DNA from: a virus
DNA length: 64,000 nucleotides
Reading direction: 5' to 3' (one strand)
IMG/VR virus record: IMGVR_UViG_3300025085_000007
The stretch's first letter is position 1, and each line of letters starts with the position of its first letter. The notes under the pieces were generated by a model that was not told the origin of the DNA, made no database searches, and worked only from the letters and a program-made list of their open reading frames with translations. Both the position numbers and the translations under genes were made by a program. Positions 778-21,500 of the stretch are shown in pieces.

Positions 778-779
778 GA

Positions 780-3359: not shown

Positions 3360-3360
3360 A

Positions 3361-4205: not shown

Positions 4206-4212
4206 TTTTTAA

Positions 4213-4794: not shown

Positions 4795-4795
4795 A

Positions 4796-5017: not shown

Positions 5018-5489
5018 TTTTTACTTTCCAATTTATATATTTAGTTAGTGTGTCACCATCAAAAATAATTTTATCTTTTTCAGGTGCATAAGGATATTCT
5101 TTACCCTTATAATCTTTGGTTTGTAATGTTTGTATGTCCAGTCTGTATAAGAATCTACCTATACCCCAGGATACACAAGCACGTTTAAATGCATCAGATG
5201 CATGTCCTTTGTCTTTTTCTACATTGGATTCAGAGCCTGTGTCTGATTTCCATACCCAATGTCCATTGACAAGTATACCTACTCTACACATTAAAAGTCC
5301 GTTAGCGTCGTAGTATTCTGTAGACCAATTGCCTGGCCCTACTACATCATCCAACAAATCTTGTGCGTCACGTGCATCTATATATGCTACGCAGTTCGCT
5401 TTACCATATCTAGAAGATTGTACTCTCCATTTGTACGGCAGTTCTTTTTGCAAATCTTTTAAATTAATTGCTTCTTGTTTCATAATCAT
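5007..5489 (-). CDS. Sak/Rad52-family single-strand annealing protein
   Basis: AYIDARDAQDLLDDVVGPGNW...KGHASDAFKRACVSWGIGRFLY is the characteristic Rad52/Rad22-family signature. Confidence 0.85.
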   Translation of the reverse strand: MIMKQEAINLKDLQKELPYKWRVQSSRYGKANCVAYIDARDAQDLLDDVVGPGNWSTEYYDANGLLMCRVGILVNGHWVWKSDTGSESNVEKDKGHASDAFKRACVSWGIGRFLYRLDIQTLQTKDYKGKEYPYAPEKDKIIFDGDTLTKYINWKVKNGK

Positions 5490-5694
5490 TATAATTTTTT
5501 TGGGTTGATTTTGTCTGTCGTGATGCTTTTACAATTTTTATATATTTACGTATCATCACAGGTGTGTTTTGTATTAAACTTGCACCTATTTTTACAAACA
5601 AACTTTTTATTACATTTTGTACTACAGACTTTTTTATGCCTGTGTCATATGCAATTTCTTCATATATTTTATCTAATTTTGACTTGTTTTTCAT
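5464..5694 (-). CDS. HU/IHF-like DNA-binding protein
   Basis: IYEEIAYDTGIKKSVVQNVIKSLF...L....V.I helix-helix-strand pattern; basic. Confidence 0.55.
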   Translation of the reverse strand: MKNKSKLDKIYEEIAYDTGIKKSVVQNVIKSLFVKIGASLIQNTPVMIRKYIKIVKASRQTKSTQKNYNDYETRSN

Positions 5695-5724
5695 TGTAAA
5701 ATAGTATTTAAAAATACGAAATTT

Positions 5725-5865
5725 TTACCAATTTAACAAAATTTTTGCAGTTTTATATACTACATATCCTACTAGACACATACCTAAAATAGGAAATAAA
5801 AATACCAAGGTTGTTGTTGTTATTACGCCTATAACGCAATACAATAAAATGCTAAATATTTTCAT
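5725..5865 (-). CDS. Small membrane protein (46 aa, below the track cut-off)
   Basis: Translated by hand: MKIFSILLYCVIGVITTTTLVFLFPILGMCLVGYVVYKTAKILLNW; fills the gap after dnaB. Confidence 0.5.
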   Translation of the reverse strand: MKIFSILLYCVIGVITTTTLVFLFPILGMCLVGYVVYKTAKILLNW

Positions 5866-7135
5866 AATCTTCAAATTTAGTTTGTTCAGCTACAAATCTT
5901 AGATTTATTTCTCCTACACCAATGTTACGTCCTTTAGCAAATATTACTTTTGCAAGTCCTTTTGTTGGGTTACCTGTCTCATCTTCGTGCAAACCATAAT
6001 ATTCAGGCCTGTATATTAAAGCTACAATATCTGCAGCTTGTTCTATCTCGCCTGACTCACGTAGATCTGACATTGTAGGTTTAGAATCTGCTCTAAAGCT
6101 TACGCCACGATTAAGTTGTGACAATGCTATAATAGCTATATCTAATTCTTTAGCTAGATTTTTTAATGCACGTGCTACTGCACTAACCTCTTGCTCACGA
6201 CTTGACCTTTTGCAGGTAACTAATTGTAAGTAATCTACAAGTACAAGTTTGATTTTGTTAGTGTGCACGTACTGTTTTATTTTTGATAATAAATAGCTTA
6301 AATCTGTATTATTACAGTCATCTATTATTAACGGTAAATTTTCTATGTAACCGACAGCTTTATTAACTTTTTTAATTTCTTGTTCATCTAATGCGCCTTT
6401 TCTAAGCCAATGACTACTTACGCCAGACTGAATGCTAACCATTCTTTGTAGTAGTTGTATAGATGACATTTCGTAACTAAATATTGCAATAGGATTTTTA
6501 GCTCTAGCTGCATTAAATGCAGTTGTTACAGCAAAACTCGTTTTACCCATAGATGACGCACCACCGACTATAATTAAGTCAGTGGGTTGCCATCCATTCG
6601 TAAAATCATCAAGAGATTTAAAGCCTGTGGTAATTCCTGTTATACCTTCTGTATTAATTTTAACAGCAAGGTCTTCAGTAAATTCTACCAATTGTTTTAT
6701 AAGAGTTTTATCTTTATCCTCGTGGTTATCAACTAACCTGTTTTGTAAATCATTAATCTTGTCGCTAATAACAGCTATGTCAGATTGATTTTGTACATGG
6801 TTATTGATTTCTTGTAAATATTCATTTACTATTTTTCTTTTAGACGATTCAACCAAACTTTGTAATGCTGAGTCAAACTCTCTTGGCATAAGTGTAGATG
6901 TACTAGTCAATTGTACAACTTTTACTGATAATTTACTTTTAGTACCTAATTCTTTGCCTATGTTTACAATGTCTGGTTCTTTGCCTTTTTTTATAATTTT
7001 TGTAAACGCTTTGTATATCAATATATTGCTTGGATCATCAAACATGTGTATATTGAACAACTGTGCGTTTTGGTGATACAATTTAGTGTCTACTATTATA
7101 TTACCTAATATTATGTTTTCTAGCTCATAATACAT
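5852..7135 (-). CDS. dnaB: Replicative DNA helicase DnaB
   Basis: GITTGF, Walker A GGASSMGKT, FSYEM, VDYLQL, ALSQLNR, DLRESGEIEQAADIV, KGRN. Confidence 0.97.
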   Translation of the reverse strand: MYYELENIILGNIIVDTKLYHQNAQLFNIHMFDDPSNILIYKAFTKIIKKGKEPDIVNIGKELGTKSKLSVKVVQLTSTSTLMPREFDSALQSLVESSKRKIVNEYLQEINNHVQNQSDIAVISDKINDLQNRLVDNHEDKDKTLIKQLVEFTEDLAVKINTEGITGITTGFKSLDDFTNGWQPTDLIIVGGASSMGKTSFAVTTAFNAARAKNPIAIFSYEMSSIQLLQRMVSIQSGVSSHWLRKGALDEQEIKKVNKAVGYIENLPLIIDDCNNTDLSYLLSKIKQYVHTNKIKLVLVDYLQLVTCKRSSREQEVSAVARALKNLAKELDIAIIALSQLNRGVSFRADSKPTMSDLRESGEIEQAADIVALIYRPEYYGLHEDETGNPTKGLAKVIFAKGRNIGVGEINLRFVAEQTKFEDYENI

Positions 7136-7140
7136 AAATT

Positions 7141-8547
7141 TTATATTTTTTGATTGTGAATACTATTTAATTCATTCATTTTTACTTCGTAGGTTTCTTC
7201 ATTTAATCCATATACATGTCCTACAGAGCCGTGTGTATTTTGACATACTTTGTTGCCGCCTAGATTTTTATGAGTTGTTAGATAACCCTTGTCAAAATCT
7301 GCATATTTAAACGTATCTAGCCAAGGAACATATGGTACACTCATATCTTCTCTGTTTTCAAGATTTTTTGGATCAAATTTTACATAACATGCGCCTATAC
7401 CGCCTTTACCGTTAGGTTGTATTAATGCATTGTTTCTGTAAGAGTTTAGTTTTTTGCGAATATAACCATTTTCTTTAGCATATACATGGAAAAATATTTC
7501 TAAAGCATTGTATTCTGTATACACACGATCCATAACTACAAAATGTGTTTTACGCCTTCTGTTATAACATTTATTCCATAACAAAGCCCTGCCTATTATT
7601 AAATCGTCATTGTTATATAACACTAAACATTGTACTACATCTTTACCTAATGATTTGTAAAAATCTAATAACCTTTGATTTTCTTCGTGACGCATACACG
7701 ATTGACCTAAAGTGCCATTACCATTTGATTCATTATAGTTATCACTATCGTAAGCATGATGTATGTCACTTGTAATTTCAAAATAACCTATTTTGTCTAG
7801 ATTATGTATTAGAAACAAAGACTCAAATTCTTCTAGTTGCCTGGCTGTATAGGTGCCATAATGAAATAATTTGTTAAATACTCTACCAAAAGTAGACATT
7901 ATAGCTTTTTTCTTACGAAGCTCAGGATTTCTTAAATTTTCTGTAAGGGTTAAATTTCTATCAAAATATGTGGTGTAACCATCATCATCGCTTTTTAATA
8001 GGTTTTTAATCTTTCTTATAGTCCAATACGAAATTTTACTTTTATCATCTATTGCAATATCAATCATTACAGGCCAATCTTTTTCGTTTCTGTCTAAATT
8101 GTCCATTATACCTTTTTCAAAATCATTTAACATAACGTGTACGTTATTGTGTGGTATAGATTTAATTTTGTCTTTTAGATTTTGAGATAATTTAAATAGA
8201 TTTTTGAAATTATATATTTCGTATAGACCATATGGAACTTCAATTTCTTCAACTTTATCAAACATTTCTTCTGGTATTATACAAGACGATCTATTTGTAT
8301 GTATAAAATAAAGATGTTTTGTTGTGTAATTTACAGGTAGCAATATAAATCCATCTATAGTATATTCTATGATGTAGAATAAATTTTCAGATGAATAATA
8401 CAATTCTTGCATTGTTCTCACATGTGACAACTTGGAAAAATGTATATTAGGATTATATGTTGCTTCGTGCAATTTTTGCACATCAATATACTTATTAGAT
8501 GTGTCTTCTTGTATATACTCGTCTTTTATTTTAACTATTTGTATCAT
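7141..8547 (-). CDS. Uncharacterised enzyme-like protein (SCM...GRALLW...MDRVY family)
   Basis: 468-aa ORF with enzyme-like motifs GQSCMR, IIGRALLW, VMDRVY, PWLDTF; function unknown. Confidence 0.75.
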   Translation of the reverse strand: MIQIVKIKDEYIQEDTSNKYIDVQKLHEATYNPNIHFSKLSHVRTMQELYYSSENLFYIIEYTIDGFILLPVNYTTKHLYFIHTNRSSCIIPEEMFDKVEEIEVPYGLYEIYNFKNLFKLSQNLKDKIKSIPHNNVHVMLNDFEKGIMDNLDRNEKDWPVMIDIAIDDKSKISYWTIRKIKNLLKSDDDGYTTYFDRNLTLTENLRNPELRKKKAIMSTFGRVFNKLFHYGTYTARQLEEFESLFLIHNLDKIGYFEITSDIHHAYDSDNYNESNGNGTLGQSCMRHEENQRLLDFYKSLGKDVVQCLVLYNNDDLIIGRALLWNKCYNRRRKTHFVVMDRVYTEYNALEIFFHVYAKENGYIRKKLNSYRNNALIQPNGKGGIGACYVKFDPKNLENREDMSVPYVPWLDTFKYADFDKGYLTTHKNLGGNKVCQNTHGSVGHVYGLNEETYEVKMNELNSIHNQKI

Positions 8548-8559
8548 GTTGTTTAATTA

Positions 8560-9843
8560 TTAAAATGGTACTTTTGAGTCTAAATAATCATCTAGACTTT
8601 TTAAATCTTCTGAATCTTTCTGTTTTTTTGTGTCTACAATTTTAAATGGTTTTGTGTACAAGCTTTTGTTTACGTCGTTATAATAGGCTATAGGATTTTC
8701 TTCTAACAAATTATATATTTCATAAACTTCTTTTTTATATACAGGGTATAGTATTGGTGCATCTTCATAATAAAATCCATCATCTATATAATTAGTATAT
8801 ACATTGCTTTTAGTACAATGCATATTTAAACATAGTTTGTGATTTTGGTATTTTGTTAACTCTTCACCACATTCTGAGCATTTAGAACTTGAATTTTGTT
8901 TGTCTGCCATATTTTTTGGATTTGCGTCCCTTGTAAAATTTCCACCCCACTTGTTGTAGCCTTGAACACCTGTGTAAGTGTTGTATCCGTTGTAAGTGTT
9001 GTAAGTTTTTTCATAAGTATGTTCTTGCTTTATTCCTCCAACATGTATTGCTATGTCGTACATTAAGTTTAATGTGTTTAATGCATCTTTATAGCTCACA
9101 TACTCGTCGTCTGTGTGTGGACTGTAATAGCCTGACGATATATTAGCCATAGCTACGTTTGGGCCTTTATCGCTTGATTTTAATTCTTTAACGTCTGTAA
9201 GTCCGCCGTTAGGTTGTAATTTAAATCCACGTTTAGTAAGCAAGTGTGCAATATTGTTTTGAAATTCATTGCCAGATAGTTCTACTAATCCAATTTTAGT
9301 TACAAAGTCATCGTTACCTTTTCTGTCTGTTTGCAATACAAATGCAGCGTCTTCAAAGAATGTCATATCTGCTACGCCACTACCTACTGTACCTACCTCC
9401 TCTGCAGCAAAGAATGCTACTTTAGCATAGTCTAGCTCGTTTAATAGATTTAGACAAGCCCACACGCCTACTTTGTCGTCGCCACCACAACCTGCTGTTT
9501 CTGTAATATCGCATCCTAGTTTGTGGTGTTTGTATTTTGTCATACCATAAAACAATGTGTCGTCTTCAGTTTTAGTTTTACATATTTTAAAATTATCTAA
9601 TATGTTATGTACTGTGTCTGTGTGTGAAACAAAGCAAGGATAGTGTAATGCAACGCCGCTTGGCATTTGTTTTGTTGCATAAATATTTTGTATAGTATTT
9701 TTACCAACTTTAACGCTTTCTGTGACAAAACTTACATTAGGCATAGATTTTAATACGCTTTGTATGTATTCTATCATTTGATCTTCTTGGTAACTTACAC
9801 TTTGTACTGCTAGTACATCTTCTAATTTAATTTTTACTTCCAT
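8560..9843 (-). CDS. M28/M20-clan zinc metallopeptidase
   Basis: HTDTVH, GGDDKVG, AAEEVG, QTDRKG, LTDV and NISSGYYSPHT metal-ligand motifs; C-terminal CxxC...C..HC zinc finger. Confidence 0.85.
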   Translation of the reverse strand: MEVKIKLEDVLAVQSVSYQEDQMIEYIQSVLKSMPNVSFVTESVKVGKNTIQNIYATKQMPSGVALHYPCFVSHTDTVHNILDNFKICKTKTEDDTLFYGMTKYKHHKLGCDITETAGCGGDDKVGVWACLNLLNELDYAKVAFFAAEEVGTVGSGVADMTFFEDAAFVLQTDRKGNDDFVTKIGLVELSGNEFQNNIAHLLTKRGFKLQPNGGLTDVKELKSSDKGPNVAMANISSGYYSPHTDDEYVSYKDALNTLNLMYDIAIHVGGIKQEHTYEKTYNTYNGYNTYTGVQGYNKWGGNFTRDANPKNMADKQNSSSKCSECGEELTKYQNHKLCLNMHCTKSNVYTNYIDDGFYYEDAPILYPVYKKEVYEIYNLLEENPIAYYNDVNKSLYTKPFKIVDTKKQKDSEDLKSLDDYLDSKVPF

Positions 9844-10157
9844 TATACTAATCTTGGTATTTCATTAATTTTTGCTTGTTCAGCTTTCTGTTGTCTTTTA
9901 ACCCAGTTACTACCTCGTAGTCCTGGATATTTTTCTTGCAATAATCTGCTACATCTTTCTATTGATTTAGGTTTAGGATGTTTTTTGTGTATGAACATGT
10001 CTTGCAACAGCTCTTTAGCTGTTATATCTTTTTTGTGCATAGATTCCCATATTATACGAGCTACCAATCTTTGATCGTCGTCTCTATAAACAGGATCTTC
10101 AAGCAAAATGTTCATTACTTTTATTTTTAAGCTAGTTTTTTTTTTATTACTATTCAT
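9843..10157 (-). CDS. Hypothetical protein
   Basis: 104-aa basic ORF (RDDDQRL...SIERCSR.LQE.YP.LRG). Confidence 0.65.
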   Translation of the reverse strand: MNSNKKKTSLKIKVMNILLEDPVYRDDDQRLVARIIWESMHKKDITAKELLQDMFIHKKHPKPKSIERCSRLLQEKYPGLRGSNWVKRQQKAEQAKINEIPRLV

Positions 10158-10515
10158 ATTTAATTATAACTTCTGAAACATAAATTGAATCTATTATAGT
10201 AGGAACAAAATGATAGATATGAATGTTATTGTTAGTATGTACCATGTTTTTATAATGTTCGCCATCTTTTCTATACCACTCTAATACTCTGTATGTTTTT
10301 ACTGTATCACCATAAAACCCATGGTCACCAATAATTAAAACAGTTTTAATATCTGGTGGTAATTCATAACTTAAATGTTTTGTGTTAAACCATTTTGTGA
10401 CTCTAATATCATTAACAAAAGCAGGATTCCTATCTCCACCCACTACAATGGATTGTTCTTGTGCATATAGCTGTGTTGTTATTAAAAATAATAAACTAAG
10501 AAATTTTGTTTTCAT
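10150..10515 (-). CDS. Putative exported protein
   Basis: N-terminal signal-peptide-like MKTKFLSLLFLITTQLYAQ. Confidence 0.55.
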   Translation of the reverse strand: MKTKFLSLLFLITTQLYAQEQSIVVGGDRNPAFVNDIRVTKWFNTKHLSYELPPDIKTVLIIGDHGFYGDTVKTYRVLEWYRKDGEHYKNMVHTNNNIHIYHFVPTIIDSIYVSEVIIKYE

Positions 10516-10798
10516 GTTTTCTGTTTTCTAATTCGTAATCTTCTACGTCGTTTACATTAACTTTTTTAACTACACCTTTTTTGTTAGGCGCAGAAGACAT
10601 AGTTATCTTTTTTAATTTTGTAAAGTTTACAAGATTTTTAACAGTCTTATAGACATTGTTTGTTAATTCTTCTGTAACTTTTGATTCGTCATCACTTTCT
10701 TGTACTTCTACAACTTTAGTAATGTTCCATTTTACGTTTTCAAAATTACCAGTATTGACTGATTCTGAGTAGCTTACGCTGATTTCTTTAATTTTCAT
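10496..10798 (-). CDS. Hypothetical protein
   Basis: Track ORF 10496..10852; the start at MKIKEISV (10798) is preferred because it minimises overlap with the upstream gene. Confidence 0.6.
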   Translation of the reverse strand: MKIKEISVSYSESVNTGNFENVKWNITKVVEVQESDDESKVTEELTNNVYKTVKNLVNFTKLKKITMSSAPNKKGVVKKVNVNDVEDYELENRKHENKIS

Positions 10799-11078
10799 CT
10801 TTGTTATATTCTTGTGCATCATCTTTTCTGCGTTCATTGTATTCGTATTCACTAATCATTTCATATTGTGAATCGTCTTCTTCGCATTCTGTGCATATCA
10901 TATATTCGTCTGCGTGTTCTTTGCAATTGCCACAAATATCTGTATGTCCCCAGAATCTAGCGTCACAGCAATTACTTGCTCCGCTTCCTATCTGTTCTGC
11001 ACCACAACAGCTTGTAACCTCATCGGAGGTATATCCGTCGTCTTGCGGGTTAGATAGTTTCCACTTATCATAAGTCAT
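10788..11078 (-). CDS. Cys-rich putative zinc-binding protein
   Basis: SCCGA, SNCCDA, CGNCKEH and CTEC clusters. Confidence 0.65.
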   Translation of the reverse strand: MTYDKWKLSNPQDDGYTSDEVTSCCGAEQIGSGASNCCDARFWGHTDICGNCKEHADEYMICTECEEDDSQYEMISEYEYNERRKDDAQEYNKDEN

Positions 11079-11084
11079 AGCTTA

Positions 11085-11246
11085 TTAACTTTTAATTGTT
11101 ACCATATTTGTTAACCAATCTACTAAATATTCAGCATATTTGACATTAAATATTTCACCTTGAAATTTAAATTCTTTTTTGTTTTTTGATTTAGCTTTTT
11201 CTAAAGCTTCTTTTAATAATTCTACGTTTTTTGTTGTTATATACAT
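11085..11246 (-). CDS. Small hypothetical protein (53 aa, below the track cut-off)
   Basis: Translated by hand: MYITTKNVELLKEALEKAK...FKFQGEIFNVKYAEYLVDWLTNMVTIKS; fills the gap. Confidence 0.55.
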   Translation of the reverse strand: MYITTKNVELLKEALEKAKSKNKKEFKFQGEIFNVKYAEYLVDWLTNMVTIKS

Positions 11247-11248
11247 AA

Positions 11249-11854
11249 TTAATAAATTGTAAATCCACCTGATTGTTCACAAAACTCTGCAAATTCTTTT
11301 ACATTTTTTTCGTCAAATGGATAGTTGCCTTCCCATTTTTTTTTGGCTTGTAAGTTATCCCAATCAGTTTTATGTGGTTCGGGATAATCTCTTGGCACTA
11401 TATCGCCATGTTGTTCTTTGACTCTTTCTTTTAATGTGTCAATTAAAATTTCTATCTTTTTGTTATGATCAACAGCTTTTTGTCTTTTCTCTTCATAATG
11501 TGCAGCATATATTTTTACATCTAAATCCTTTATTAGCTTTCTTAATCTAGCAGCAATCTTTTTAGATTTAGTTTTAGATATTTTATGCCCATCATTGTAT
11601 GTGCCTTTTGTCATATCTTTTTCTGTTAATATATCTTGACAAGAACTGCATACATACGTCCATAGTGGTCGCCACCACCAAACATTATTTCTAAAGTATA
11701 CGCCTGGGTTTTCTAACTCCCATTCTTCGTATGCATTATACCATTCTTTTTGTATGGCTTCATCTTCTATTGGCCACCCAGATTGATGTTTAATTAGTAT
11801 CTCTGGTTTTTTTGTGTTTTCTTGAGGTTTTAAACCGTGCAAATCAAATCCCAT
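11249..11854 (-). CDS. Conserved-looking phage hypothetical protein
   Basis: MGFDL...YFRNNVWWWRPLW...FAEFCEQSGGF pattern. Confidence 0.75.
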   Translation of the reverse strand: MGFDLHGLKPQENTKKPEILIKHQSGWPIEDEAIQKEWYNAYEEWELENPGVYFRNNVWWWRPLWTYVCSSCQDILTEKDMTKGTYNDGHKISKTKSKKIAARLRKLIKDLDVKIYAAHYEEKRQKAVDHNKKIEILIDTLKERVKEQHGDIVPRDYPEPHKTDWDNLQAKKKWEGNYPFDEKNVKEFAEFCEQSGGFTIY

Positions 11855-11856
11855 AA

Positions 11857-12165
11857 TTAATTATTATAATATTGTTCTAAAGCACGCTCTCTGCGTGTCT
11901 TTCTTTTTTTATTTGGTTCTTTCTTTTCTTTTTTTAATCCTCTTTTACTTAATACTTTACGTCTATAAGTAGAGAATATAAATCCTGCTATAAAGCCGCT
12001 GCTCATCATAAATTGTGATGCACTAGTTATAATTGGCAAAATTATTGTTAAGCTTATGTCCCAATAGACACCATACTTACGTATTTTATCCCAATCATTA
12101 CCATATATGTCACACAATGTATAGATGTAAACACCAGCAATACAAAAAGCTAGTATTAAAGTCAT
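11857..12165 (-). CDS. Membrane protein
   Basis: Two or three hydrophobic segments and a basic C-terminus. Confidence 0.6.
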   Translation of the reverse strand: MTLILAFCIAGVYIYTLCDIYGNDWDKIRKYGVYWDISLTIILPIITSASQFMMSSGFIAGFIFSTYRRKVLSKRGLKKEKKEPNKKRKTRRERALEQYYNN

Positions 12166-12326
12166 TCTTTTTTTGTTTTAATTAACAAATCCATTTCTAT
12201 AGGATCTATGTTAGCATACAACTCTTCAAACAATTTATCTTCTTTTTGTTTTAGTTTATTTATTGTTTGATTTTTTGGACTTTTTACTTTTTTAATTATG
12301 CTCTGTAGTTTCTTTATCTTTATCAT
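12162..12326 (-). CDS. Small hypothetical protein
   Basis: Track ORF 12162..12401; the internal start MIKIKKLQ (12326) is more plausible. Confidence 0.45.
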   Translation of the reverse strand: MIKIKKLQSIIKKVKSPKNQTINKLKQKEDKLFEELYANIDPIEMDLLIKTKKE

Positions 12327-12579
12327 CACTATAAATTTTTGCAAAACTGTCAAATAAATCTTGCATTTGTGTTTCATTAGAGTTACTAGTTTGACAATCA
12401 TCTTTTTCTTCTACATTATAAGATGCATTTACGTACTCGTTTATTTGTTGCAGCACTTCTTTGAATGTTTGGTGCATTTCCACCATTTCTTCTATTGAGT
12501 ACTCTACTTCTAGTTTACCTAGTTCGAACTGTGCTTCTTCTGCTACGTTTACTTTGATGTTTTCTAATTTAAATTTCAT
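12292..12579 (-). CDS. Hypothetical protein
   Basis: 95-aa acidic ORF. Confidence 0.6.
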   Translation of the reverse strand: MKFKLENIKVNVAEEAQFELGKLEVEYSIEEMVEMHQTFKEVLQQINEYVNASYNVEEKDDCQTSNSNETQMQDLFDSFAKIYSDDKDKETTEHN

Positions 12580-12580
12580 A

Positions 12581-12976
12581 CTATTTTAATTTACCGATTC
12601 TAAAATTATTGTTGTTAAATTTTTGTTTTGTTAAGTATTTAACTATCTCATTTTTCTTGTTAGATTTTTTATTGAAATAGTTTTCTATTGTACCAAAACT
12701 GTATTCTAAATGTGTATCCCATAGTTGTTTTTCTATAGCATACTCTTCGTATGTTTTAAAATACTTTTCTAGTATCATGCAGTTAAGCTCCAGGTTTTTA
12801 AATCTGTAACTTACTTTTTTCATTTTATAACCTTCGGGCGCTTGTTCTACAACCTTGCCGTTAGGTATAATGATTACTAAATTTTGTTCTTTTCTGTAGT
12901 GTGGTATGCACTTGTTCATGTTGTGTGCTAATACTGCATCTGCTACAAAATTCTTGTTTGAAATTACTAATGCCAT
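12581..12976 (-). CDS. Hypothetical early protein
   Basis: 131-aa ORF with A-rich TIR (AATAAAAATAAAACAATG). Confidence 0.65.
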   Translation of the reverse strand: MALVISNKNFVADAVLAHNMNKCIPHYRKEQNLVIIIPNGKVVEQAPEGYKMKKVSYRFKNLELNCMILEKYFKTYEEYAIEKQLWDTHLEYSFGTIENYFNKKSNKKNEIVKYLTKQKFNNNNFRIGKLK

Positions 12977-12999
12977 TGTTTTATTTTTATTGGCGTTTC

Positions 13000-13022
13000 G
13001 GTAAATGAATACCTAACGAAAT
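13000..13022 (-). promoter_or_regulatory. Conserved hairpin motif, copy A (ATTTCGTTA-GGTA-TTCATT-TACC)
   Basis: Near-identical to 15060-15083; stem ends 24 nt before the ATG at 12976. Confidence 0.55.
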
Positions 13023-13056
13023 CAGTCGCTAGCTGTTGCTTTGAAGTGTGTGCTCA

Positions 13057-13434
13057 CTAATAATAATGATAGGGATCATGTGGATCATCCCATTCCTCAA
13101 ATTGTATTTCTGAAAAGCCATGACCACCAACCTCTTTACAAATTGAATTGTAATCAATGAATCCTACACCTCTTTTATTGTACTCCACAATGTATGATAG
13201 TAAATTAACGCGCCTAAGTGTTGCTACTGCATCAAATCTTAATTTCCAAACACCACAACAGGTATTACCTTTACCATCTTCACCGTGTGTAAATCCTTGA
13301 CTTGTTCCACCTCGTGCATTTCTTTTCCAATACATAATTATATTGTACAAGTGATCTGTTTTAAGGTCAGTAATCTTGACTTTTACTTTACCATTTATTA
13401 AATGATATTCTTTTAAATCAGGAATATGTTTCAT
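13057..13434 (-). CDS. Hypothetical protein
   Basis: 125-aa ORF; ATGA overlap with the upstream gene. Confidence 0.6.
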   Translation of the reverse strand: MKHIPDLKEYHLINGKVKVKITDLKTDHLYNIIMYWKRNARGGTSQGFTHGEDGKGNTCCGVWKLRFDAVATLRRVNLLSYIVEYNKRGVGFIDYNSICKEVGGHGFSEIQFEEWDDPHDPYHYY

Positions 13435-13775
13435 GACTTATCTCTTTTTGGTAATGGTGGTCTTTTGTGTAAGTCCCACCATTCACTACCATCGTACTCA
13501 CCTCTTGTCATCCATAGTCCATTCTTTAACCATATGGTTCCATATAGTTTTTGACCACCATAACCAGCGTAGTAATCATACTCATTCATTTTTGATAACC
13601 ATTTATCAAGCTCTAAATCAGTGTGTCCAGGATATAATATATACCACACCCAGTCTTCTTCTCTATATGTATCTGGAAAAGATACTTCAGCAGCCTGAAT
13701 ATCTCTTAGTGGTATATTCGCATTAGTTAATAGTTTTACTATTTCTGCTCTTGCATTTCTATTAAACATATCCAT
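13431..13775 (-). CDS. Conserved-looking phage hypothetical protein
   Basis: Y.AGYGGQ.LYGTIW...W..RGEYDGSEWW motif. Confidence 0.7.
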   Translation of the reverse strand: MDMFNRNARAEIVKLLTNANIPLRDIQAAEVSFPDTYREEDWVWYILYPGHTDLELDKWLSKMNEYDYYAGYGGQKLYGTIWLKNGLWMTRGEYDGSEWWDLHKRPPLPKRDKS

Positions 13776-13776
13776 A

Positions 13777-14250
13777 CTAATATTTAAATTGATTTAAAGA
13801 TAAAAGTTGTCGCTCAAGCTTACTTCTTTGATAAGATAAAGCACTTTCTATTATTTTTGGATCTGTTAGCTGTGTAGCTAAAGATTCAGTTTCTTTAATA
13901 GCATAAGAAGCGTCATCATTTATTCCTGATTCATCATCATCGTTTTTATTTAAATCAAATCCTACTGTAAGATTACCGTATTCATCACGTTTACTAAAGG
14001 TTATTCCTCCGTGAACTTTTACATAGTCGTCAATAGAATCATTGTCTAAATCATTTTGCATATATATATGTACAAAAGGATGATTACTTTTTAAAGTAAC
14101 ATAACCACAATGCCATATATATTCTTCAGTATAATACATTCCTCCTGCTTGTCTTTGGTAGCGTATAACATGCGCACCTAATACTTTTCTGTCACCCCAT
14201 TTATTTACAACAGGGATTTTTGTATTTGAATTGACTTTATTATTTTTCAT
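13777..14250 (-). CDS. Conserved-looking phage hypothetical protein
   Basis: WHCGYV...VHGGITF...GFD motif. Confidence 0.7.
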   Translation of the reverse strand: MKNNKVNSNTKIPVVNKWGDRKVLGAHVIRYQRQAGGMYYTEEYIWHCGYVTLKSNHPFVHIYMQNDLDNDSIDDYVKVHGGITFSKRDEYGNLTVGFDLNKNDDDESGINDDASYAIKETESLATQLTDPKIIESALSYQRSKLERQLLSLNQFKY

Positions 14251-14425
14251 ACTCTGGCTTTGTTTTAATAATAATATTTAAAGCAATTTTATCAATCATC
14301 TCCCAATCACGATCATGTGCTTTCCAAGCATCTTTAAGTTTATTGAACGCATCAATTCTAGACCAATACAATGCTTCATACCAATCTCTATCTTCTATTA
14401 ATTCTTTTTTTTCGTTTCTTTCCAC
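14240..14425 (-). CDS. Small hypothetical protein
   Basis: 61-aa ORF in operon. Confidence 0.5.
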   Translation of the reverse strand: MERNEKKELIEDRDWYEALYWSRIDAFNKLKDAWKAHDRDWEMIDKIALNIIIKTKPEYEK

Positions 14426-14434
14426 GTTATTATT

Positions 14435-14647
14435 TTATTTATTAGATTCAACTTTATTTATAAAAGACTTTATCTGCTCGTCTAATTCATCTATGGTTAA
14501 TTCCAGAGATATACATATTTCACGTAATTTTTCATTACGCAATTTAAGTTCAGAAATTTCTTCTTTTAGCTTAACTATATCTGCTGTTAACCAATCTACC
14601 TTTGCTAACGCATCGCGTAGCTCAAGGTTCTTATCTAATCTACTCAT
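14435..14647 (-). CDS. Small coiled-coil protein
   Basis: Heptad pattern over 70 aa. Confidence 0.55.
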   Translation of the reverse strand: MSRLDKNLELRDALAKVDWLTADIVKLKEEISELKLRNEKLREICISLELTIDELDEQIKSFINKVESNK

Positions 14648-15036
14648 TAGTATTTTAATATTACTTGGTTAGACATTACATTAACATAGTCAATAACATT
14701 CTTATCATTTAAATGGAATGTCATTGTTCTAGCACCAGGCTTATAGCTTTTGACAGCTATTATTTCTAATGCCTTCTTACAAGGTTTGATTACTGCTTTT
14801 TGTATTAATAGTTTAGTACGCTTAGTAACACCTGTTTCTACATTAGTTTCATACACTTTAAGATTAGTCATATTATTAATACGACTAGCAATATCTTTAA
14901 TCTTGTACTCCAACGTAGGTTTGAAACTCATCACATCATAACTTGTCTTAGGTTTGTCTAAGGCAGTTGTGTAATAGTTACTTGTACTTAAATCTGTTGT
15001 TGTTGCATATCTTGCAACGATTTTTAAATCTCTCAT
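14647..15036 (-). CDS. Hypothetical early protein
   Basis: Track start 15093 lies in a structured region; start at MRDLK (15036) after AAAAAAAAGAG is preferred. Confidence 0.6.
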   Translation of the reverse strand: MRDLKIVARYATTTDLSTSNYYTTALDKPKTSYDVMSFKPTLEYKIKDIASRINNMTNLKVYETNVETGVTKRTKLLIQKAVIKPCKKALEIIAVKSYKPGARTMTFHLNDKNVIDYVNVMSNQVILKY

Positions 15037-15059
15037 CTCTTTTTTTTTGAGAGTTTGCA

Positions 15060-15083
15060 GGCAAATGAATGCCCTACCGAAAT
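15060..15083 (-). promoter_or_regulatory. Conserved hairpin motif, copy B (ATTTCGGTAG-GGCA-TTCATT-TGCC)
   Basis: Compensatory T-A to C-G change relative to copy A; stem ends 24 nt before the ATG at 15036. Confidence 0.55.
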
Positions 15084-15117
15084 GTGTCGGCACACTTAAT
15101 TGAACAAAGTTTTAAAC

Positions 15118-15160
15118 ATGACTTGACTTTATCAAAATTATTGTATAACTTTGAAGTCAT
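15118..15160 (+). promoter_or_regulatory. Rightward (antisense to early arm) promoter TTGACT...TAACTTTG, bracketed by an ATGACTT/AAGTCAT inverted repeat
   Basis: TAACTTTG at 15146-15153; TTG about 20 nt upstream; 7-bp inverted repeat at 15118-15124 and 15154-15160. Confidence 0.45.
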
Positions 15161-15496
15161 AAATTAATCACTTAAATAAATGAAATTATAATAAAACATA
15201 CTTAAACCACATAATTCTACATAACTACTTGATTATCAATAACTTAAACATTTATAGTACTTAAAATAGTACTAAAACTATAGTTTATAGACTAGTAGAT
15301 ATTATATAACTCTTATGTAGTTAAACATAAAATCAATACGCAATAGTTATTTTTTTTTCTTTCTTACTACTTATTGTTGTTAAAACAACTAACTAATTAG
15401 CAAAACCCACCCACCCACCTATAGTTTTATACACAGAACAACTGTTTAACTATTAAAATAACATCAACGCAACGATTATTGTGGCAAATGTTTATA

Positions 15497-16060
15497 TTAT
15501 AAATTACTTAAATTATTAATATCATCTTCTCTTGATTTCAATGCATCGAGAGCATTAGCATATGATACCCAAACAGTAGTAGTAACATACTTACCGTTCT
15601 CGTACTTGCCTTTCTTTACGGCAAGGTTAGAGTCTGCAAACGCAGCGCCATCCACAATCTTGTAGTACACGCCATTGTCAGACTCCTTCTTGATCTTGTG
15701 TAGACCAAGCTTCTTCAGCTTGTTGAATACAGTAGACTGCTTAGCCTCAGCATTCTCAAGCATCTCTTTTAAATCAGCACCAGAGTATATCTCCATAAAC
15801 AGATCAGCTTTGATGTAGTAGTCTGTAGTAAACCACTCACCATCTTCAGCTTGAGTAGGAACACCAAGTATAATTGTGCTGATGTCACTTATCTTAGTAT
15901 TACCTGCCATGTATTGTGTCTTGTACTTAGTACGAGCATACACGGAGATCTTACCTTCCTCATGTAACTGAGCGATAGGTGTAGCAACGACTTGCTTACT
16001 TGTGTTACGAACTCTGTTGTTAAAGTTCTCTCTGATTTGATTTGCTGTCATATTTGACAT
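15497..16060 (-). CDS. Hypothetical early protein (GC-richer than the rest of the genome)
   Basis: Track start 16096; start at MSNMTANQ (16060) is preferred (shared GGCnnnnACTATTATG context). Confidence 0.7.
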   Translation of the reverse strand: MSNMTANQIRENFNNRVRNTSKQVVATPIAQLHEEGKISVYARTKYKTQYMAGNTKISDISTIILGVPTQAEDGEWFTTDYYIKADLFMEIYSGADLKEMLENAEAKQSTVFNKLKKLGLHKIKKESDNGVYYKIVDGAAFADSNLAVKKGKYENGKYVTTTVWVSYANALDALKSREDDINNLSNL

Positions 16061-16127
16061 AATAGTTCTCGCCTCATAACATAATAATGCGGACATCTAA
16101 CGAGTATGGTCCTGGTTAATCTTAATG

Positions 16128-16171
16128 AACCCTGAAGAGGAATCGAACCTCTCCATGTTCCAAACAGGGTT
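16128..16171 (-). ncRNA. Mini tRNA-like element (acceptor stem plus T-arm, no anticodon arm)
   Basis: AACCCTG-TTTGGAACATGG-AGAGG-TTCGATT-CCTCT-T-CAGGGTT: 7-bp outer stem, 5-bp stem with canonical G-TTCGATT-C T-loop. Confidence 0.55.
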
Positions 16172-16177
16172 GACTGA

Positions 16178-16405
16178 CTAGATTAGATCTGTGAAGTCAG
16201 TTGCCTCAAGAGTTAATAGAGCAATAGATGCTACTCGAGTGTCCTTACGTAGTTGTTGAACACCTTTAGTACCAGCGTATCGTTTAGATACATACTGATG
16301 AGCTGTTGCTACAGGATCTTGAAGTAGAGTTACTGTACTCTTCTTTGCTGATTTAGCAGCGTTAGTTACTTTCTTTACTCTTGATGTTTTAGCTTTAGTA
16401 GCCAT
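16178..16405 (-). CDS. Basic small protein, first gene of the leftward arm
   Basis: Track TTG start at 16420; ATG at 16405 (MATKAKTSR) is preferred; Lys/Ala-rich N-terminus. Confidence 0.65.
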   Translation of the reverse strand: MATKAKTSRVKKVTNAAKSAKKSTVTLLQDPVATAHQYVSKRYAGTKGVQQLRKDTRVASIALLTLEATDFTDLI

Positions 16406-16478
16406 AATAGTTCGTGCCAATAAACATACATTGATGCCAGCTACACACGTTCAGCTGTAGTGAATAGTTAAAAATAGA

Positions 16479-16561
16479 CCACGGTGTGTCAAAAATTTCG
16501 ATGACACGGGGCGTGGTATGTAATATGTATCCCTCTCTCACAACAAAAAAAATTTTTTTTT
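16479..16561. repeat. Inverted repeats at the arm junction (CCACG..GTGTCA/TGACAC..CGTGG; A8T9 palindrome)
   Basis: Imperfect inverted repeat at 16479-16516; A-run 16545-16552 followed by T-run 16553-16561. Confidence 0.6.
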
Positions 16562-16562
16562 C

Positions 16563-16570
16563 TACCTTTG
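16563..16570 (+). promoter_or_regulatory. -7 promoter box TACCTTTG
   Basis: TAnnTTTG ending 6 nt before the ATG at 16576. Confidence 0.65.
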
Positions 16571-16575
16571 CATAC

Positions 16576-17547
16576 ATGAATGATAAACAGATAGCACAGA
16601 TTGCATTAGAAACAGGTATAGATGCTGATATTTTAAGAAAGTATATTGACAACTTGATTAAAGAAGAAGGATTTGAAAAGGGTAGTGTTAAGAAAAGAGT
16701 AAGATCTGTAAGTAAGAGAGACTTTAGTTCTTTGCAGAATGTGGTTGAAGGTAATGTTTATTACGAAAATGAAAAAATTAACTCAGAGCCAATCAATAAG
16801 TATGTTGGTGATGATGTATTCTTTCCTTATATCACCAATGATAAGGGTAATTCTGGTTATGATATAGGCTATGGTGTTAAGTTAAAAGACAAAGAAGGTA
16901 ATTTTTTACTACCAGAAGTTGCTAATAGCGAAGAGGACATACAAAGACTTATGGAAAAGGGTATGGGGGAGAAGGAGTATAACTCTTTATTTGCTAAAGT
17001 GGTTAAAGATAAGATCCTTGGAACTAAGAACACTTATAATAAGTTTATAAAGAATGGTGAGTATAAGGGTGTGCAATTAAATGATGCTAGAGATTTTGAT
17101 AGTTTAGACGATTATGAGAAGTTACTTATGGTTGACACTCACTACAACGTTGGTTTAACTAAGTTTCCTAAAATGATGTCTGGTGTTAGTTCTAATGATA
17201 TGTCTATTATAGGAAAGGAGTACAGACACTTTTCTGGAGATAAGTTGTTGGGTAGTAGAAACGAAATGCGTAAATCTTTTCTTATAAAGAATATCGCTAT
17301 GAGAAAAAATATGTTTGGCAGCAGATTAGAAGAGTATATGAAAAGCGTTATTGATACAGGTCAGGGCATAAAGAGTAAGTTAAGTGATTTGTATGATAGT
17401 ACAATAGGTGACTCTTTATATGAAAGTGATCTGCCTTTTGTTGGCCAAGAAGCTATGCCTGATAGCACAGCAATGACTAATCAAGAATATACTGATTACT
17501 TTTTAGAAAACACAAACGAAGATAACCCTTACGGACCAAATCAATAA
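16576..17547 (+). CDS. Lysozyme/muramidase (T4-lysozyme/GH24-like)
   Basis: KEEGF...GYDIGYGVKL and DTHYNVGLTKFPKM...KEY...LGSRN motifs; track start 16486 trimmed to Met31. Confidence 0.7.
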   Translation: MNDKQIAQIALETGIDADILRKYIDNLIKEEGFEKGSVKKRVRSVSKRDFSSLQNVVEGNVYYENEKINSEPINKYVGDDVFFPYITNDKGNSGYDIGYGVKLKDKEGNFLLPEVANSEEDIQRLMEKGMGEKEYNSLFAKVVKDKILGTKNTYNKFIKNGEYKGVQLNDARDFDSLDDYEKLLMVDTHYNVGLTKFPKMMSGVSSNDMSIIGKEYRHFSGDKLLGSRNEMRKSFLIKNIAMRKNMFGSRLEEYMKSVIDTGQGIKSKLSDLYDSTIGDSLYESDLPFVGQEAMPDSTAMTNQEYTDYFLENTNEDNPYGPNQ

Positions 17548-17550
17548 CAT

Positions 17551-17778
17551 ATGGATTTTTTTGACAGCGCAGATGAAGGAACTATTATTAAGCATTACGA
17601 CGACGATAGTTACGATGTAATAGTAGCCTATAGAGGTTTAGACTTATTAATAAACCACGAGAATAGAATACTATACGATCTTAGCATAAACGACTTTATA
17701 GTTAAGAATATAAAGACTACTATAGACTCCGACAATATATGGAGAAACACATTCCACGTAGTTACTAAGAATTTTTAG
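17551..17778 (+). CDS. Hypothetical protein
   Basis: 75-aa ORF. Confidence 0.6.
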   Translation: MDFFDSADEGTIIKHYDDDSYDVIVAYRGLDLLINHENRILYDLSINDFIVKNIKTTIDSDNIWRNTFHVVTKNF

Positions 17779-17786
17779 TACTTTTG
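17779..17786 (+). promoter_or_regulatory. -7 promoter box TACTTTTG
   Basis: TAnnTTTG followed by CATAAGTG, the same TTTGCATA context as 16563. Confidence 0.55.
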
Positions 17787-17791
17787 CATAA

Positions 17792-18337
17792 GTGTATTTA
17801 GTTAATATAAATAGAGCAGGGGATATTTATAAAGACGACGACGGCGTTATACTTGTCCCAGAGTTTCAGGAAGTTTTAAACGGAGAGGAATTAGGTCAGG
17901 TTGCTATGAAGTGGGTAGCACTCGTGTGCGACTACGAAAGCCCTTATAGACACTTTACAGAAAGCGAAAGAAAAAAAGCTGTAAGTAAAGATCTATATAA
18001 TACTTATAAGTGGAAAGGTGAGAAATCACCTAAAGTGTTAGCCGCCTTAGATAAATACAAACAATTGCAGTTTGATCCTTTAGATGAGCAGCTAATAGCT
18101 TTTAATAAAAAGATAACGCAGTTTACTACATATATGAACAATATGCATATAGATGAAGATACTGCTGAAGGTTTGCAAAAGATTATGATAGGTATCGAAA
18201 AGATATATAAGACTAGGCAAACCTTAGTTGACTCAATTGAACGTAGAGGCGAAAGACAAAAGATTGCTGGGGATAAACAATTATCATTCCTAGAAAGAAG
18301 AAAAGAAATACAAGAACAAAGTCGAGATAGTGCGTAA
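17792..18337 (+). CDS. Conserved crAss-like protein upstream of TerL (candidate terminase small subunit)
   Basis: D..SPY...E.ER...AA..KY pattern, helical, typical size and position; GTG start. Function inferred from position only. Confidence 0.5.
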   Translation: MYLVNINRAGDIYKDDDGVILVPEFQEVLNGEELGQVAMKWVALVCDYESPYRHFTESERKKAVSKDLYNTYKWKGEKSPKVLAALDKYKQLQFDPLDEQLIAFNKKITQFTTYMNNMHIDEDTAEGLQKIMIGIEKIYKTRQTLVDSIERRGERQKIAGDKQLSFLERRKEIQEQSRDSA

Positions 18338-18590
18338 AAGACCAAGCGGATATAAAAAGAATAAAACAGATATATCTATAGATTATCTTAGGTATCGCTA
18401 CAACTATTTTTATAAGCGAGGCAAATATGCCGAAGCAAAAAAAGTGAGCGACAGGGCTGACGCCCTGTTTGGCAGGAATATCGACAACGAGTTTCATATG
18501 AAATTGAGTGAGAAGGAAAATATAAATGATCCATTTGGTATTGGCAAAACAAATAAAATAAAGTATGGCGGTAGGAAAAAAGGATTATAA
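18330..18590 (+). CDS. Basic hypothetical protein
   Basis: 86-aa ORF overlapping its neighbours. Confidence 0.5.
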   Translation: MRKRPSGYKKNKTDISIDYLRYRYNYFYKRGKYAEAKKVSDRADALFGRNIDNEFHMKLSEKENINDPFGIGKTNKIKYGGRKKGL

Positions 18591-21500
18591 AGATTCTCAG
18601 GTTAGGCTAAAGCATAAGCAAAAGGTACCTCCTCAAACATTAGTTAAGGTTGAGCCTTCTAATGATGATACTAGAACAAGGGCAGAGCTTTTAGACGCTA
18701 TAGAAGACTTGTTTCAAACTGTATACACTTCTACAGGCGCTAGTAGAGAGGTAGATCTAGAAGATTTGAGAGCTATACTAACTATGTTAGTCCTATCTGC
18801 AACTAATGCTGATGATGATGGTGTTGGTGCTACACAAACACAAGTAGATGCTATAAATTTAAATTCTACTAATATTTCTAGAAACGCAAGTGATTTAGCT
18901 ACTTTTATTAGCAATATATCAATTAGTAATAATAAAGTTGGTATTGGAACTACAAGTCCAGATTCTAAATTACACGTGTATGGGACTTCGAACCCTGTGT
19001 TTAAGGTTGAAGATGATGGTGGCGCTTGGGGATTTATGCAAGCCGCAGGGTCTAATCAAGTTTATGTTGGCTCTGGTCCTAGTGCAAATTTAAGTATTTA
19101 TGCTGGCTTGTCTAGCGCTATGACAATTTTAGCTTCTAACAGAAACGTCGGTATTGGAACTACTAGTCCTGGGTATAAGCTTGAGGTAAATGGTACTGGT
19201 AGTTTTTTTGGTAACATTAGAAGTGGAGGCGGGACATTATGGTCAGATTCAAATGGTGGAGTTCAGTTAGGATACGACTCAAGCGATGCGACAGGTTATT
19301 TAACAACATATTATGATACGACAAGTGTTGTTATTGGGGCAGGAATATCGCAAAAAACTGGTATTACTATTAATGGTCAATCAGCAAGCGCTGGAAATCA
19401 AATAACTTTTAGAGTAGGTAACGCTGAAAGAATGCGTATTGATGGTTCTGGCAACGTCGGTATTGGAACTACTAGTCCAACCGAACTACTTGAAGTTTAT
19501 AAAAACGGCGGTAATGCTGCTATAAAAGTACACGAAGACGCTGGTACTCACGAAGCAAAAATTCATTTAAGAAGAGGTGGTTCAGATTGGGAGATTATAA
19601 ACAATAACGACTTGGCTATTGAATCTGAAGACACTGAGCTTTTTAGAATAAAGACAAATGGCAGAGTTGGTATTGGTACTACTGCGCCTGACCATAAGTT
19701 TCACGTTGAGTTTACTAACGGAGACACAAGCTTTTCTGGCGGAGGTCTTGGAAACTGGGGAAGTGATGGTATTAGAATTGAAAATACTTACGGTGGAGTT
19801 AATACTATGGCTATGCTTCAGTTTAGAAATGGTGATGCAGATATTCATATAGCTGGAATTAGACAAGGCACTAATGATTCAGACTTAGGTTTCTTTTTTG
19901 AAGGCTCTGAAAAAATGCGTATTGACTCATCAGGTAACGTTGGTATTGGTACGACTAGTCCTGACTCACTGCTTGAAATATCATCTAGTAGTGCTACAGA
20001 CTTTTTAAAACTTACATCAACGACATCTAGTGCTAGTCCTATAAAACTTATATTTGAAAAATCAAGTTCAGAACAAAGTATAATAGAATACAATAGAAAC
20101 GGCGATTTAGAAATATACAATAACGATAGTGACGGTGGCGTAATGATAGATGGATCTGCTTCTGCAGGAGGAGATTTATATGTAAACAACGCTGGAAATG
20201 TTGGTATTGGTACAACTAGTCCTGGTGAGAAGTTAGATGTTAATGGAAATGTTTTAGTAGGAGGCGGAAACTTATCAAGATGGTTAAGGTTTAAAAGAAC
20301 TGATGGCTATCAATTAGGTTTTGGTGAAATTTTATCAAATAGTGAACTAAAAATAGGTGGAACTAATGTAGGTGTTATTTCTTTTCACAAGTCTGGTGCA
20401 GAAGTAATGAGAATTAATGATACCAACGTCGGTATTGGTACTACTAGTCCTAGTGCTAAGCTAGAAGTTTCAGCTGGAGGAACAACATCTCAAGAAATAG
20501 CTCATTTTGGAAACTCAAATGGTGTTGGTAAAATTAAAATGCAACTTGATGGAGTTGGTAGCTCAAAGCAAGTAATGCTTGATTCAGACAACAATGAAGA
20601 TATAGTTCTAAGCACTCAAGGAGATTCTTATTTTAATATTTCTCATGGCAACGTAGGTATTGGAACCACAAGTCCTACTAGAAAGTTAGATGTTGCAGGT
20701 GACATGAATTTAGCATTGAGCGCTGTTGCGTTAAGAGTTGGAGGAACTGCAGTTTTAGGAGTATTAAATAATTTAACAAGGGTTAATGGAACAGGAGGGG
20801 CTTCTGGAGGAATTCTTTTTACACCTAATGATGACAATAACGAGAAAGTCCGTATTACTAGCGACGGCAAAGTCGGTATTGGAACTGATAGTCCATCTGA
20901 AAAGCTAGAGGTATCAGGTAAGATATTAGCAACTGGAGGACAAATTAGAGCTGGGTCATATTTAGAAAGTTATCCGTCGTTTAGTTTTGCAGACGACATT
21001 GACACTGGTATGTTTAGCGATACCGCTAATCAACTAGAGTTTGTAACAGGTGGAAGTTCAAGAGTAACTATTAATTCCGTCGGTAACGTAGGAATTGGTA
21101 CAACAAGTCCAGTAAATAAACTAGATGTAGGTGGCGATTTGTCTGCGGCAAATATAAGGGTAGGAAGCTCAGCCTCAGGAGAAGGTATAATAAGACATAG
21201 CGCGGGTTCTGGTTATGGTATTGGTATTGTAACTGGCGCTATTAGCTCGTCATCAATAGGTTTGTTTGTTGACCATAGCACAAACAACAGAAACGTAGGT
21301 ATTGGCACAACATCACCTTCTGAAAAGCTAGAAGTTGCTGGTAACATATCTTTAACTGGTAGTGTGCAAAAACAAATATCTACTACGCATCATACGTTTA
21401 CTTTTGGGGCAGCTGGTTCTGCAAGTCAAGACTATTGGGTACCGTTTATTGGTAGTAGTGAACAAGCCGCACCTAACGTTACACATAGAACTATAGCTCC

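Follow-up and report, generated by a model that had tools for sequence, protein, structure and literature searches.

The minus strand of a 64,000-nucleotide (nt) stretch of viral DNA, IMG/VR record IMGVR_UViG_3300025085_000007 (the window), carries two copies of a short element placed just ahead of start codons of early genes. Comparison with relatives indicates that this element is a real and undescribed control cassette of early genes, conserved and built of three helices. Two abutting hairpins, HP1 and HP2, are followed by a third helix, HP3, that takes in the start codon itself. We refer to the copy at 15059–15092 as site A and to the copy at 13000–13031 as site B. As to what the cassette does, we consider the chances roughly even that it acts as a transcribed, structured leader that gates the start codon and presents the double hairpin to a putative factor. 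Because HP3 includes the start codon, this helix must act in the mRNA. HP3, the occurrence of G-U pairs, the weak folding of the element as DNA, and a class of site A variants that keeps the structure without the sequence together lead us to favor the transcribed leader over the alternatives considered below.

An earlier note on this DNA had read, on the minus strand, ATTTCGTTA-GGTA-TTCATT-TACC at 13022–13000 and ATTTCGGTAG-GGCA-TTCATT-TGCC at 15083–15060, with identical loops, a C-G/T-A swap in the stem between the copies, and stems ending 24 nt ahead of the ATGs at 12976 and 15036. Rereading the minus strand bears out each of these points. Both ATGs also prove to be the true starts, since homologues in relatives start at the same Met and the leaders ahead of them vary in length by 1–3 nt, and are therefore noncoding. 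The remark that neither copy has a TAnnTTTG box holds for the motif itself; a perfect TAATTTTG at 15140–15133, also on the minus strand and ∼50 nt ahead of the 15083 copy, is not conserved in relatives. The count of only two copies stands as well. A covariance model of the double hairpin, built from sites A and B and their relatives and run with filters off over the 64-kb window, returned the two copies at 62.5 and 59.0 bits, the next best score being 11, and it found one copy in the complete 67-kb relative G002. Among pairs of 80-nt upstream regions in the window, the A/B pair ranks second of 1770, with a score reached by 0 of 5000 mononucleotide shuffles. Within the window alone we judge this similarity to be unexceptional; its significance comes from conservation and covariation in relatives.

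RNAfold, applied to five variants, places the hairpin of the earlier note (HP2) in the middle of three helices, and RNAalifold, given the site A alignment, returns the same three. HP1 abuts HP2 on its 5′ side and is made from a box shared by the two sites, its CGA..TCG core being extended to 6 bp. At site A, HP1 (15075–15092, minus strand, as are all six helices) has the arms TGCCGA and TCGGTA around the loop CACATT and contains the CGAC..ATTTCG box that is common to site B. At site B, RNAfold and pair counts give an HP1 (13014–13031) with the arms TAGCGA and TCGTTA, including one G-U pair, around the loop CTGATT. HP2 joins (G)GGCA to TGCC(T) at site A (15059–15074), as seen by RNAfold and in relatives, and GGTA to TACC at site B (13000–13013), in both cases around TTCATT. 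The leader arm of HP3 begins 5–6 nt past HP2 and pairs with the UG of the AUG and the next 2–4 nt across an A-rich loop of 12–15 nt. At site A (15030–15053), where RNAfold, RNAalifold, and covariation all identify this helix, CTCTCA in the leader pairs with TGAGAG (the UG of AUG 15036 plus 4 nt) across 12 nt; at site B (12972–12994), RNAfold pairs GCCA with TGGC (the UG of AUG 12976 plus GC) across 15 nt. An outer stem, TTTC/GAAA, around HP2 of site B was rejected, as the GAAA is unconserved and shows no covariation.

The pairing is maintained where the sequence changes. Across 11 rows of the class of variants that resembles the window's own elements (class I, below), the HP1 and HP2 positions pair in 98.3% of cells, compared with 25–52% when the partner is slid; three pairs are altered on both sides, and the covariation score is reached by 0 of 500 shuffles. 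Between sites A and B, one HP1 pair changes from C-G to G-U and another from G-U to A-U. The HP2 stems found in relatives are GGCA/TGCC, GGTA/TACC, and GACA/TGTC, so that the compensatory swap first noticed between the two copies recurs, with zero mismatches in any variant. The near-identical L142/L026 and L146 differ by a compensatory double change, GGGCA..TGCCC against GGGTA..TACCC. The HP2 loop reads TTCANT, with T, A, or G at the fifth position across relatives. Taken together, these comparisons indicate that the hairpin is real and under selection for pairing.

HP3 shows the same behavior at site A, where it is fully paired in seven rows (100%), with two double changes between gene families, in which CTCTCA/TGAGAG becomes CAGTCA/TGACTG before a different gene (L011), and with one U-G variant, the CAGTCA/TGGCTG of L157. 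Of 60 window genes, the site A gene is the only one with a 6-nt match of this type, and a 4-nt match such as that at site B occurs in 7 of 60. At site B, (T/C)GCC is the sole invariant block of an otherwise variable leader, and support for HP3 appears weaker there than at site A. The distance from HP2 to the ATG stays within 23–26 nt in relatives despite the variable leader sequence, a constancy that follows from the pairing of the leader with the start codon in HP3.

This coordinated change of the arms bears on a quite different explanation, that the element is a double-stranded DNA operator at which a phage repressor binds the inverted repeat G-N-N-A (N6) T-N-N-C. A candidate repressor exists, since a gene for a helix-turn-helix (HTH)-like protein (open reading frame [ORF] 15497–16096; PHROG match, E = 1e-4) lies just upstream, and the element is indeed an inverted repeat before early genes. 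However, a change in one half-site always comes with a change in the other (GGCA, GGTA, and GACA each face their exact complement) and mixed pairs do not occur, as would be expected for base pairing rather than for a protein reading fixed half-sites. In addition, the loop is more conserved than the arms, and HP1 and HP3 are left unexplained. We therefore consider an operator highly improbable. Stem covariation also removes a sigma-54 promoter (GG-N10-GC, with the GG at −24) from consideration: site A of the window fits this pattern, and site B (TTTACC) and the site A variants of L011 (TTGTCC) and L146 (TTACCC) lose the GC at −12 through that covariation.

Conservation across relatives provides the second line of evidence. 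Relatives were collected by IMG/VR pattern scans, a metagenome scan anchored on a separate conserved block, and a locus search with a profile of p1, the 131-amino acid (aa) product without known family of the gene that follows site B (12581–12976, minus strand); further ones came from contigs looked up after p1 homologues had served as the profile in a protein search. Locus searches with single proteins returned near-identical relatives only, and a scan anchored on the divergent promoter block described below gave two additional matches, both unrelated. The motif search in relatives that the earlier note had called for found site B ahead of every p1 homologue recovered, and p1 is always 3′ of site B. 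These homologues share 27–53% identity. In 13 distinct contexts, 42 nt are invariant, from AAAGCAACAGC through HP1 and HP2 to TACC, while the leader is variable and the first 150 coding nt average ∼50% ungapped identity. Site B conservation begins at the stop codon of whichever gene sits upstream. In the ∼27-nt stretch between that stop codon and HP1 (13032–13058, minus strand), which has no clear counterpart at site A, only a spot of 3–4 nt varies, with a 3-nt insertion in L147. Conservation is strongest in and before the hairpins and falls sharply right after HP2.

Site A heads its unit after a spacer of ∼460 nt and occurs in two classes. Class I, found in the window, L026/L142, L146, and L011/L013, resembles site B. 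Class II, found in the G002 type, L147, and L157, has a hairpin at the corresponding position, its loop being of 4 nt and its 5′ flank different; these variants keep HP2 and HP3 but not the sequence. In this phage, the first gene after site A is p2 (14647–15036, minus strand), which encodes 129 aa without known family; the L011, L147, and L157 lineages have a gene other than p2 in its place.

Searches for the element outside this phage lineage gave no support for a known family or a host origin. An 18-base pattern had 15 matches in 185,579 species genomes, none with the HP2 complement or in a Bacteroidota context, a number at or below a rough chance estimate; a host-derived element is rejected, there being no supporting copy among these genomes. 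Membership of an Rfam 15 family is likewise rejected, as cmscan of 12000–17000 with E up to 1 yielded only an irrelevant weak plastid match elsewhere. A tRNA is also rejected: ARAGORN made no call, and a T-loop is incompatible with the variable fifth position of the HP2 loop.

Our preferred reading of the element as a leader may be put as follows. The conserved cassette, of ∼65–90 nt, would work as sense-strand RNA, forming a structured leader at the 5′ end of the transcript or between its cistrons. HP1 and HP2, whose 6-nt loops are conserved and whose stems covary, would together be recognized in a sequence-specific way by a putative factor, either a protein or an RNA polymerase (RNAP). HP3 would bury the start codon, and access to the AUG would depend on the state of the leader. 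The cassette heads the two independently started units atop the early (replicative) module, bracketing swappable small genes, and a promoter may also lie in or just upstream of HP1-HP2. The helices, their covariation and conservation, the copy number, and the gene context are observed in the sequences themselves; what we infer is that the cassette acts as RNA, that it gates translation or processing, and that a trans-acting factor exists.

Several observations favor a structure in RNA. G-U pairs occur at three HP1/HP2 positions in some rows, where the opposite strand would have A-C mismatches, and they lend modest support to a structure of the sense strand. The double hairpin, when folded as single-stranded DNA, reaches −5.1 kcal/mol at site A and −2.8 kcal/mol at site B, with z ∼ −1 on either strand, no better than shuffles, and HP2 of site B is not predicted at all in that fold. 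The lack of a host-type promoter box in the element and the near-constant spacing of HP2 from the ATG likewise count in favor of a leader. The arrangement resembles phage translational operators and leaders that sequester start codons in having a small hairpin with a conserved loop, a covarying stem, a fixed distance to the AUG, and a start codon taken up in a helix. Comparable operators are those of T4 gene 43 and of the MS2/R17 coat protein, and the hairpins of T4 e, soc, and 49. It differs from translational operators in that the conserved hairpins end 23–26 nt before the AUG, outside the usual ribosome footprint. Bacteroidota, the host group suggested by the TAnnTTTG boxes of this phage, do not rely on Shine-Dalgarno pairing.

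Other observations weigh against a leader. Each stem has only 4–6 bp and is weak alone; the variants are related sequences that represent few independent events, and the G-U evidence comes down to three of them. At site B, HP3 has only 4–5 bp and no covariation, because ATGGCA is invariant there. The 42 invariant nt of site B, together with the conserved stretch upstream, exceed what a small RNA structure needs and would also suit a DNA signal for a conserved polymerase. Similarly, a promoter would be in keeping with the fall of conservation after HP2 and with the place that the element takes in front of the early module. Finally, RNA data come from one run, the metatranscriptome X24, with four single-read contigs, and the transcription of HP1-HP2 is something we infer. 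These four contigs, each of 151 nt, fall within 1–20000 at 12547–12697, 12760–12910, 16168–16318, and 16305–16455, and none of them has an end near the motifs. Two Logan contigs (L153 and L156) that start at the same HP1 nucleotide were rejected as marking a 5′ end, as 30 shared nt plus the first strain-specific base amount to a k=31 unitig break. In the window and in G002, 11-mers of the site B element, direct or complementary, do not recur at any conserved place; by this comparison, the phage genome has no antisense partner for the element.

To weigh the alternative of a promoter, it is useful to consider the phage. The window has a G+C content of 32%. Its minus-strand block 115–16652 holds small genes and replication genes, including a DnaB-type helicase, and the structural genes lie on the plus strand. 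The portal protein is ∼33% identical to Crassvirales portals, ORF 34181–40486 is the crassvirus muzzle protein (PF25731, E = 1e-129), and the source runs are marine and estuary metagenomes. On the plus strand, an ORF of 3983 aa (46090–58041) carries a gp66-type two-barrel RNAP domain with DLDGD at aa 2429. The presence of such an enzyme had been a premise of the earlier note, and it held up: a profile of 20 homologues of the ORF matches PDB 6vr4 (E = 4e-8) with the catalytic motif aligned, the match covering the RNAP core, which is flanked by ∼1800 N-terminal and 900 C-terminal residues. Proteins of this family have ∼3700–4200 aa and share an invariant RIP and GSDxDGD, which align with the phi14:2 motif. 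From the portal, muzzle, giant-ORF, and 6vr4 matches, we assign the window to an uncultured marine phage that is a distant member of the crAss-like group and has a polymerase domain of the gp66 type. Neither blastn of 12500–16500 against a phage collection nor tblastn of the giant ORF (2970 aa) against 50,697 phage records gave a match.

The earlier note had offered two options, a recognition element of the 3983-aa RNAP or an RNA processing or translation element. The evidence favors the second, and the promoter option is less supported. That option would have HP1 and HP2 form in opened or single-stranded DNA, where the injected gp66-type RNAP would read them and start a few nt after HP2, HP3 becoming the 5′-terminal stem of the transcript; we regard this as possible, if rather doubtful. 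A related claim is that HP1-HP2 is a DNA-hairpin promoter of a crAss-type two-barrel virion RNAP, convergent with that of the unrelated N4 polymerase and with HP3 as the 5′-terminal stem of early mRNA, and we hold it to be unlikely.

Much in the genome is consistent with such a promoter. The phage has the gp66-type domain, and the giant ORF would be the candidate reader. In phi14:2, the injected polymerase, an enzyme with a preference for single-stranded DNA, transcribes the replicative module as the early class, and no early promoter motif is known. Here, sites A and B occupy two of the few noncoding gaps heading the replicative module. They lack host TAnnTTTG boxes, whereas the structural genes have them: perfect boxes lie ∼15–35 nt ahead of plus-strand genes (e.g., at 26132, 46054, and 58046), including the giant RNAP gene. 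These boxes indicate that the middle and late genes are probably transcribed by the host RNAP and that the host is probably a member of the Bacteroidota. A primary-sigma promoter of that group (TTG ... TAnnTTTG) was rejected for the element itself, as no box lies in or overlaps either copy; the closest matches, TTCATTTG and TGATTTCG, have one to two mismatches, including A at position 2. Site A stands back to back with a host-type promoter on the opposite strand, so p2 may need a start signal of its own. The conservation profile, with its peak over the hairpins and the sequence ahead of them and its drop immediately past HP2, would suit a promoter as well.

Precedents exist for both parts of the idea. 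N4 has three hairpin promoters with a conserved loop and a stem that needs only to pair (PMC4496689), and, as the Thermus phage P23-45 demonstrates, a two-barrel virion RNAP can recognize promoters by their sequence (10.1101/2022.12.01.518664). As with N4 promoters P1–P3, the copies are few and stand at the head of an early region, the phage carries a giant injected RNAP, and each copy has a small hairpin with conserved loop bases and conserved flanks (PMC4496689). However, the N4 enzyme is a T7-like single-subunit RNAP, whereas that of the window is of the two-barrel gp66 type. The N4 hairpin has a 5- to 7-bp stem and a 3-nt loop in a GC-rich heptamer centered at −11 on the template strand (PMC4496689), in contrast to the two hairpins found here, with stems of 4–6 bp, AT-rich loops of 6 nt (CACATT/CTGATT and TTCANT), sense-strand G-U pairs, and a third helix that reaches the start codon. 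In P23-45, gp96 is a gp66-related virion two-barrel RNAP with a conserved phage-specific motif upstream of pre-early genes, but that motif has ∼14 copies and is linear and AT-rich, with no hairpin reported, in a different phage group (10.1101/2022.12.01.518664).

Further points stand against the promoter. The N4 virion RNAP reads a hairpin that the template strand forms in supercoiled DNA and that initiation requires, and it starts a fixed few nt past that hairpin; the G-U pairs of the window favor the sense strand. The stems have 4–5 bp and the loops are AT-rich and of 6 nt, with a DNA folding energy no different from that of shuffles. In G002, only site B keeps the sequence and site A has a different hairpin; therefore, one enzyme could not read both sites by sequence. 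Lastly, the early 5′ ends of phi14:2 revealed no motif that they have in common. The leader and promoter readings are compatible if transcription starts upstream of HP1 or between HP2 and HP3.

Action in nascent RNA could also take the form of a processive antitermination signal in the early transcript, like lambda nut or HK022 put, that modifies the transcribing polymerase. Lambda nut consists of a linear conserved box and a small hairpin, and HK022 put of two stem-loops. The likeness to put lies in architecture and copy number: HP1 and HP2 abut, their loops are conserved and their stems covary, and each genome has one or two copies, at the head of a long, gap-free operon of ∼13–15 kb. The element differs from both in having no sequence resemblance and no recognizable N-like protein alongside. 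There is no boxA/boxB consensus, the N termini of p1 and p2 are not arginine-rich and match no family, no downstream terminators in need of override were found, and the fixed link of HP3 to the start codon is not a feature of nut or put. Antitermination is thus, in our view, quite improbable.

We return to the favored leader to consider what its two copies enclose. Sites A and B share ∼35 nt in direct orientation and bracket a variable block of small genes. In the window, p2 and five further small genes (13057–14647, minus strand) lie between the sites, a content that depends on the relative, with six genes in the window, four in L147, three in L011, two in G002, and a single gene each in L157 (as called) and L158. 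In G001, a relative with 97% identity, the middle of the 13057–15036 block is replaced. PHROG and Pfam searches gave no function for p1, p2, or the cassette genes. By these comparisons, a set of early genes that can be swapped has its borders at sites A and B. A parallel is offered by the PeSL (promoter-early stem-loop) cassettes of T4-type phages, short repeats that flank small nonessential early genes differing among close relatives (PMC2839356); genes flanked by sites A and B are likewise gained, lost, or swapped. Unlike the present element, PeSL occur in many copies and combine a strong sigma-70-type promoter with a proven terminator stem-loop (PMC2839356). Here, one or two copies occur, no host-type promoter box accompanies them, and terminator character is doubtful; a sigma-70 scan found 34 sites compared with 30.4 in shuffles, no excess.

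The PeSL parallel raises the question of whether HP1 and the T-rich 5′ half of HP2 could form a weak intrinsic terminator or attenuator between cassettes. A terminator scan flags HP1 of site B as a weak stem with the T-rich tail GTATTCATTT, and PeSL cassettes do join a terminator stem-loop to a promoter (PMC2839356). Site A is not flagged, however; the tail is not a U run, and the stems are short and AT-rich. Moreover, the element keeps a fixed distance to the next ATG and not to the preceding stop, and site A has no close upstream gene. A terminator is accordingly very improbable.

Several neighboring features were observed alongside the element. Back to back with site A, on the plus strand, lies a promoter of Bacteroidota type, TTG-N20-TAACTTTG (15123–15153), with a perfect box. 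All relatives, L011, L147, and L157 among them, retain its boxes and the 20-nt spacing, and the spacer sequence varies. It points away from site A into a conserved spacer of ∼340 nt, where we found no ORF downstream of it and where plus-strand RNA shows no stable fold (z = −1.0). A noncoding RNA of the plus strand may be the product of this promoter. On the minus strand at 15406–15419, GGTGGGTGGGTGGG forms a G-quadruplex-like run that is invariant in most relatives; used as a scan anchor, it specifically recovered relatives from metagenomes. Farther upstream, between the first small gene and the HTH gene, 16128–16171 (minus strand) holds a tRNA-like minihelix with a 7-bp acceptor-type stem and a canonical T arm (GGTTCGATTCC) and without an anticodon arm. 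ARAGORN makes no call for it, and it is present in L158 with one loop change. The mostly noncoding 16168–16455 beside this minihelix is, besides p1, the only part of 1–20000 with near-identical X24 contigs, at a depth of 2–3 that is too shallow for interpretation.

Finally, we know of no account of how crAss-like phages start their early genes. The element described here is short and exceptionally conserved, its helices carry compensatory changes, and it is placed where an early start signal is expected. At ∼65 nt, it offers a concrete substrate for a recombinant polymerase domain, and the leader can be placed in reporter fusions, in both cases without phage culture. If the element is an RNA leader, it would be a new cis-regulatory RNA motif of Bacteroidota phages and would illustrate how a start codon can be gated in hosts whose translation does without Shine-Dalgarno pairing. 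Under either the leader or the promoter reading, it marks the borders of a gene cassette and thus may help in reading mosaicism in this marine phage lineage.

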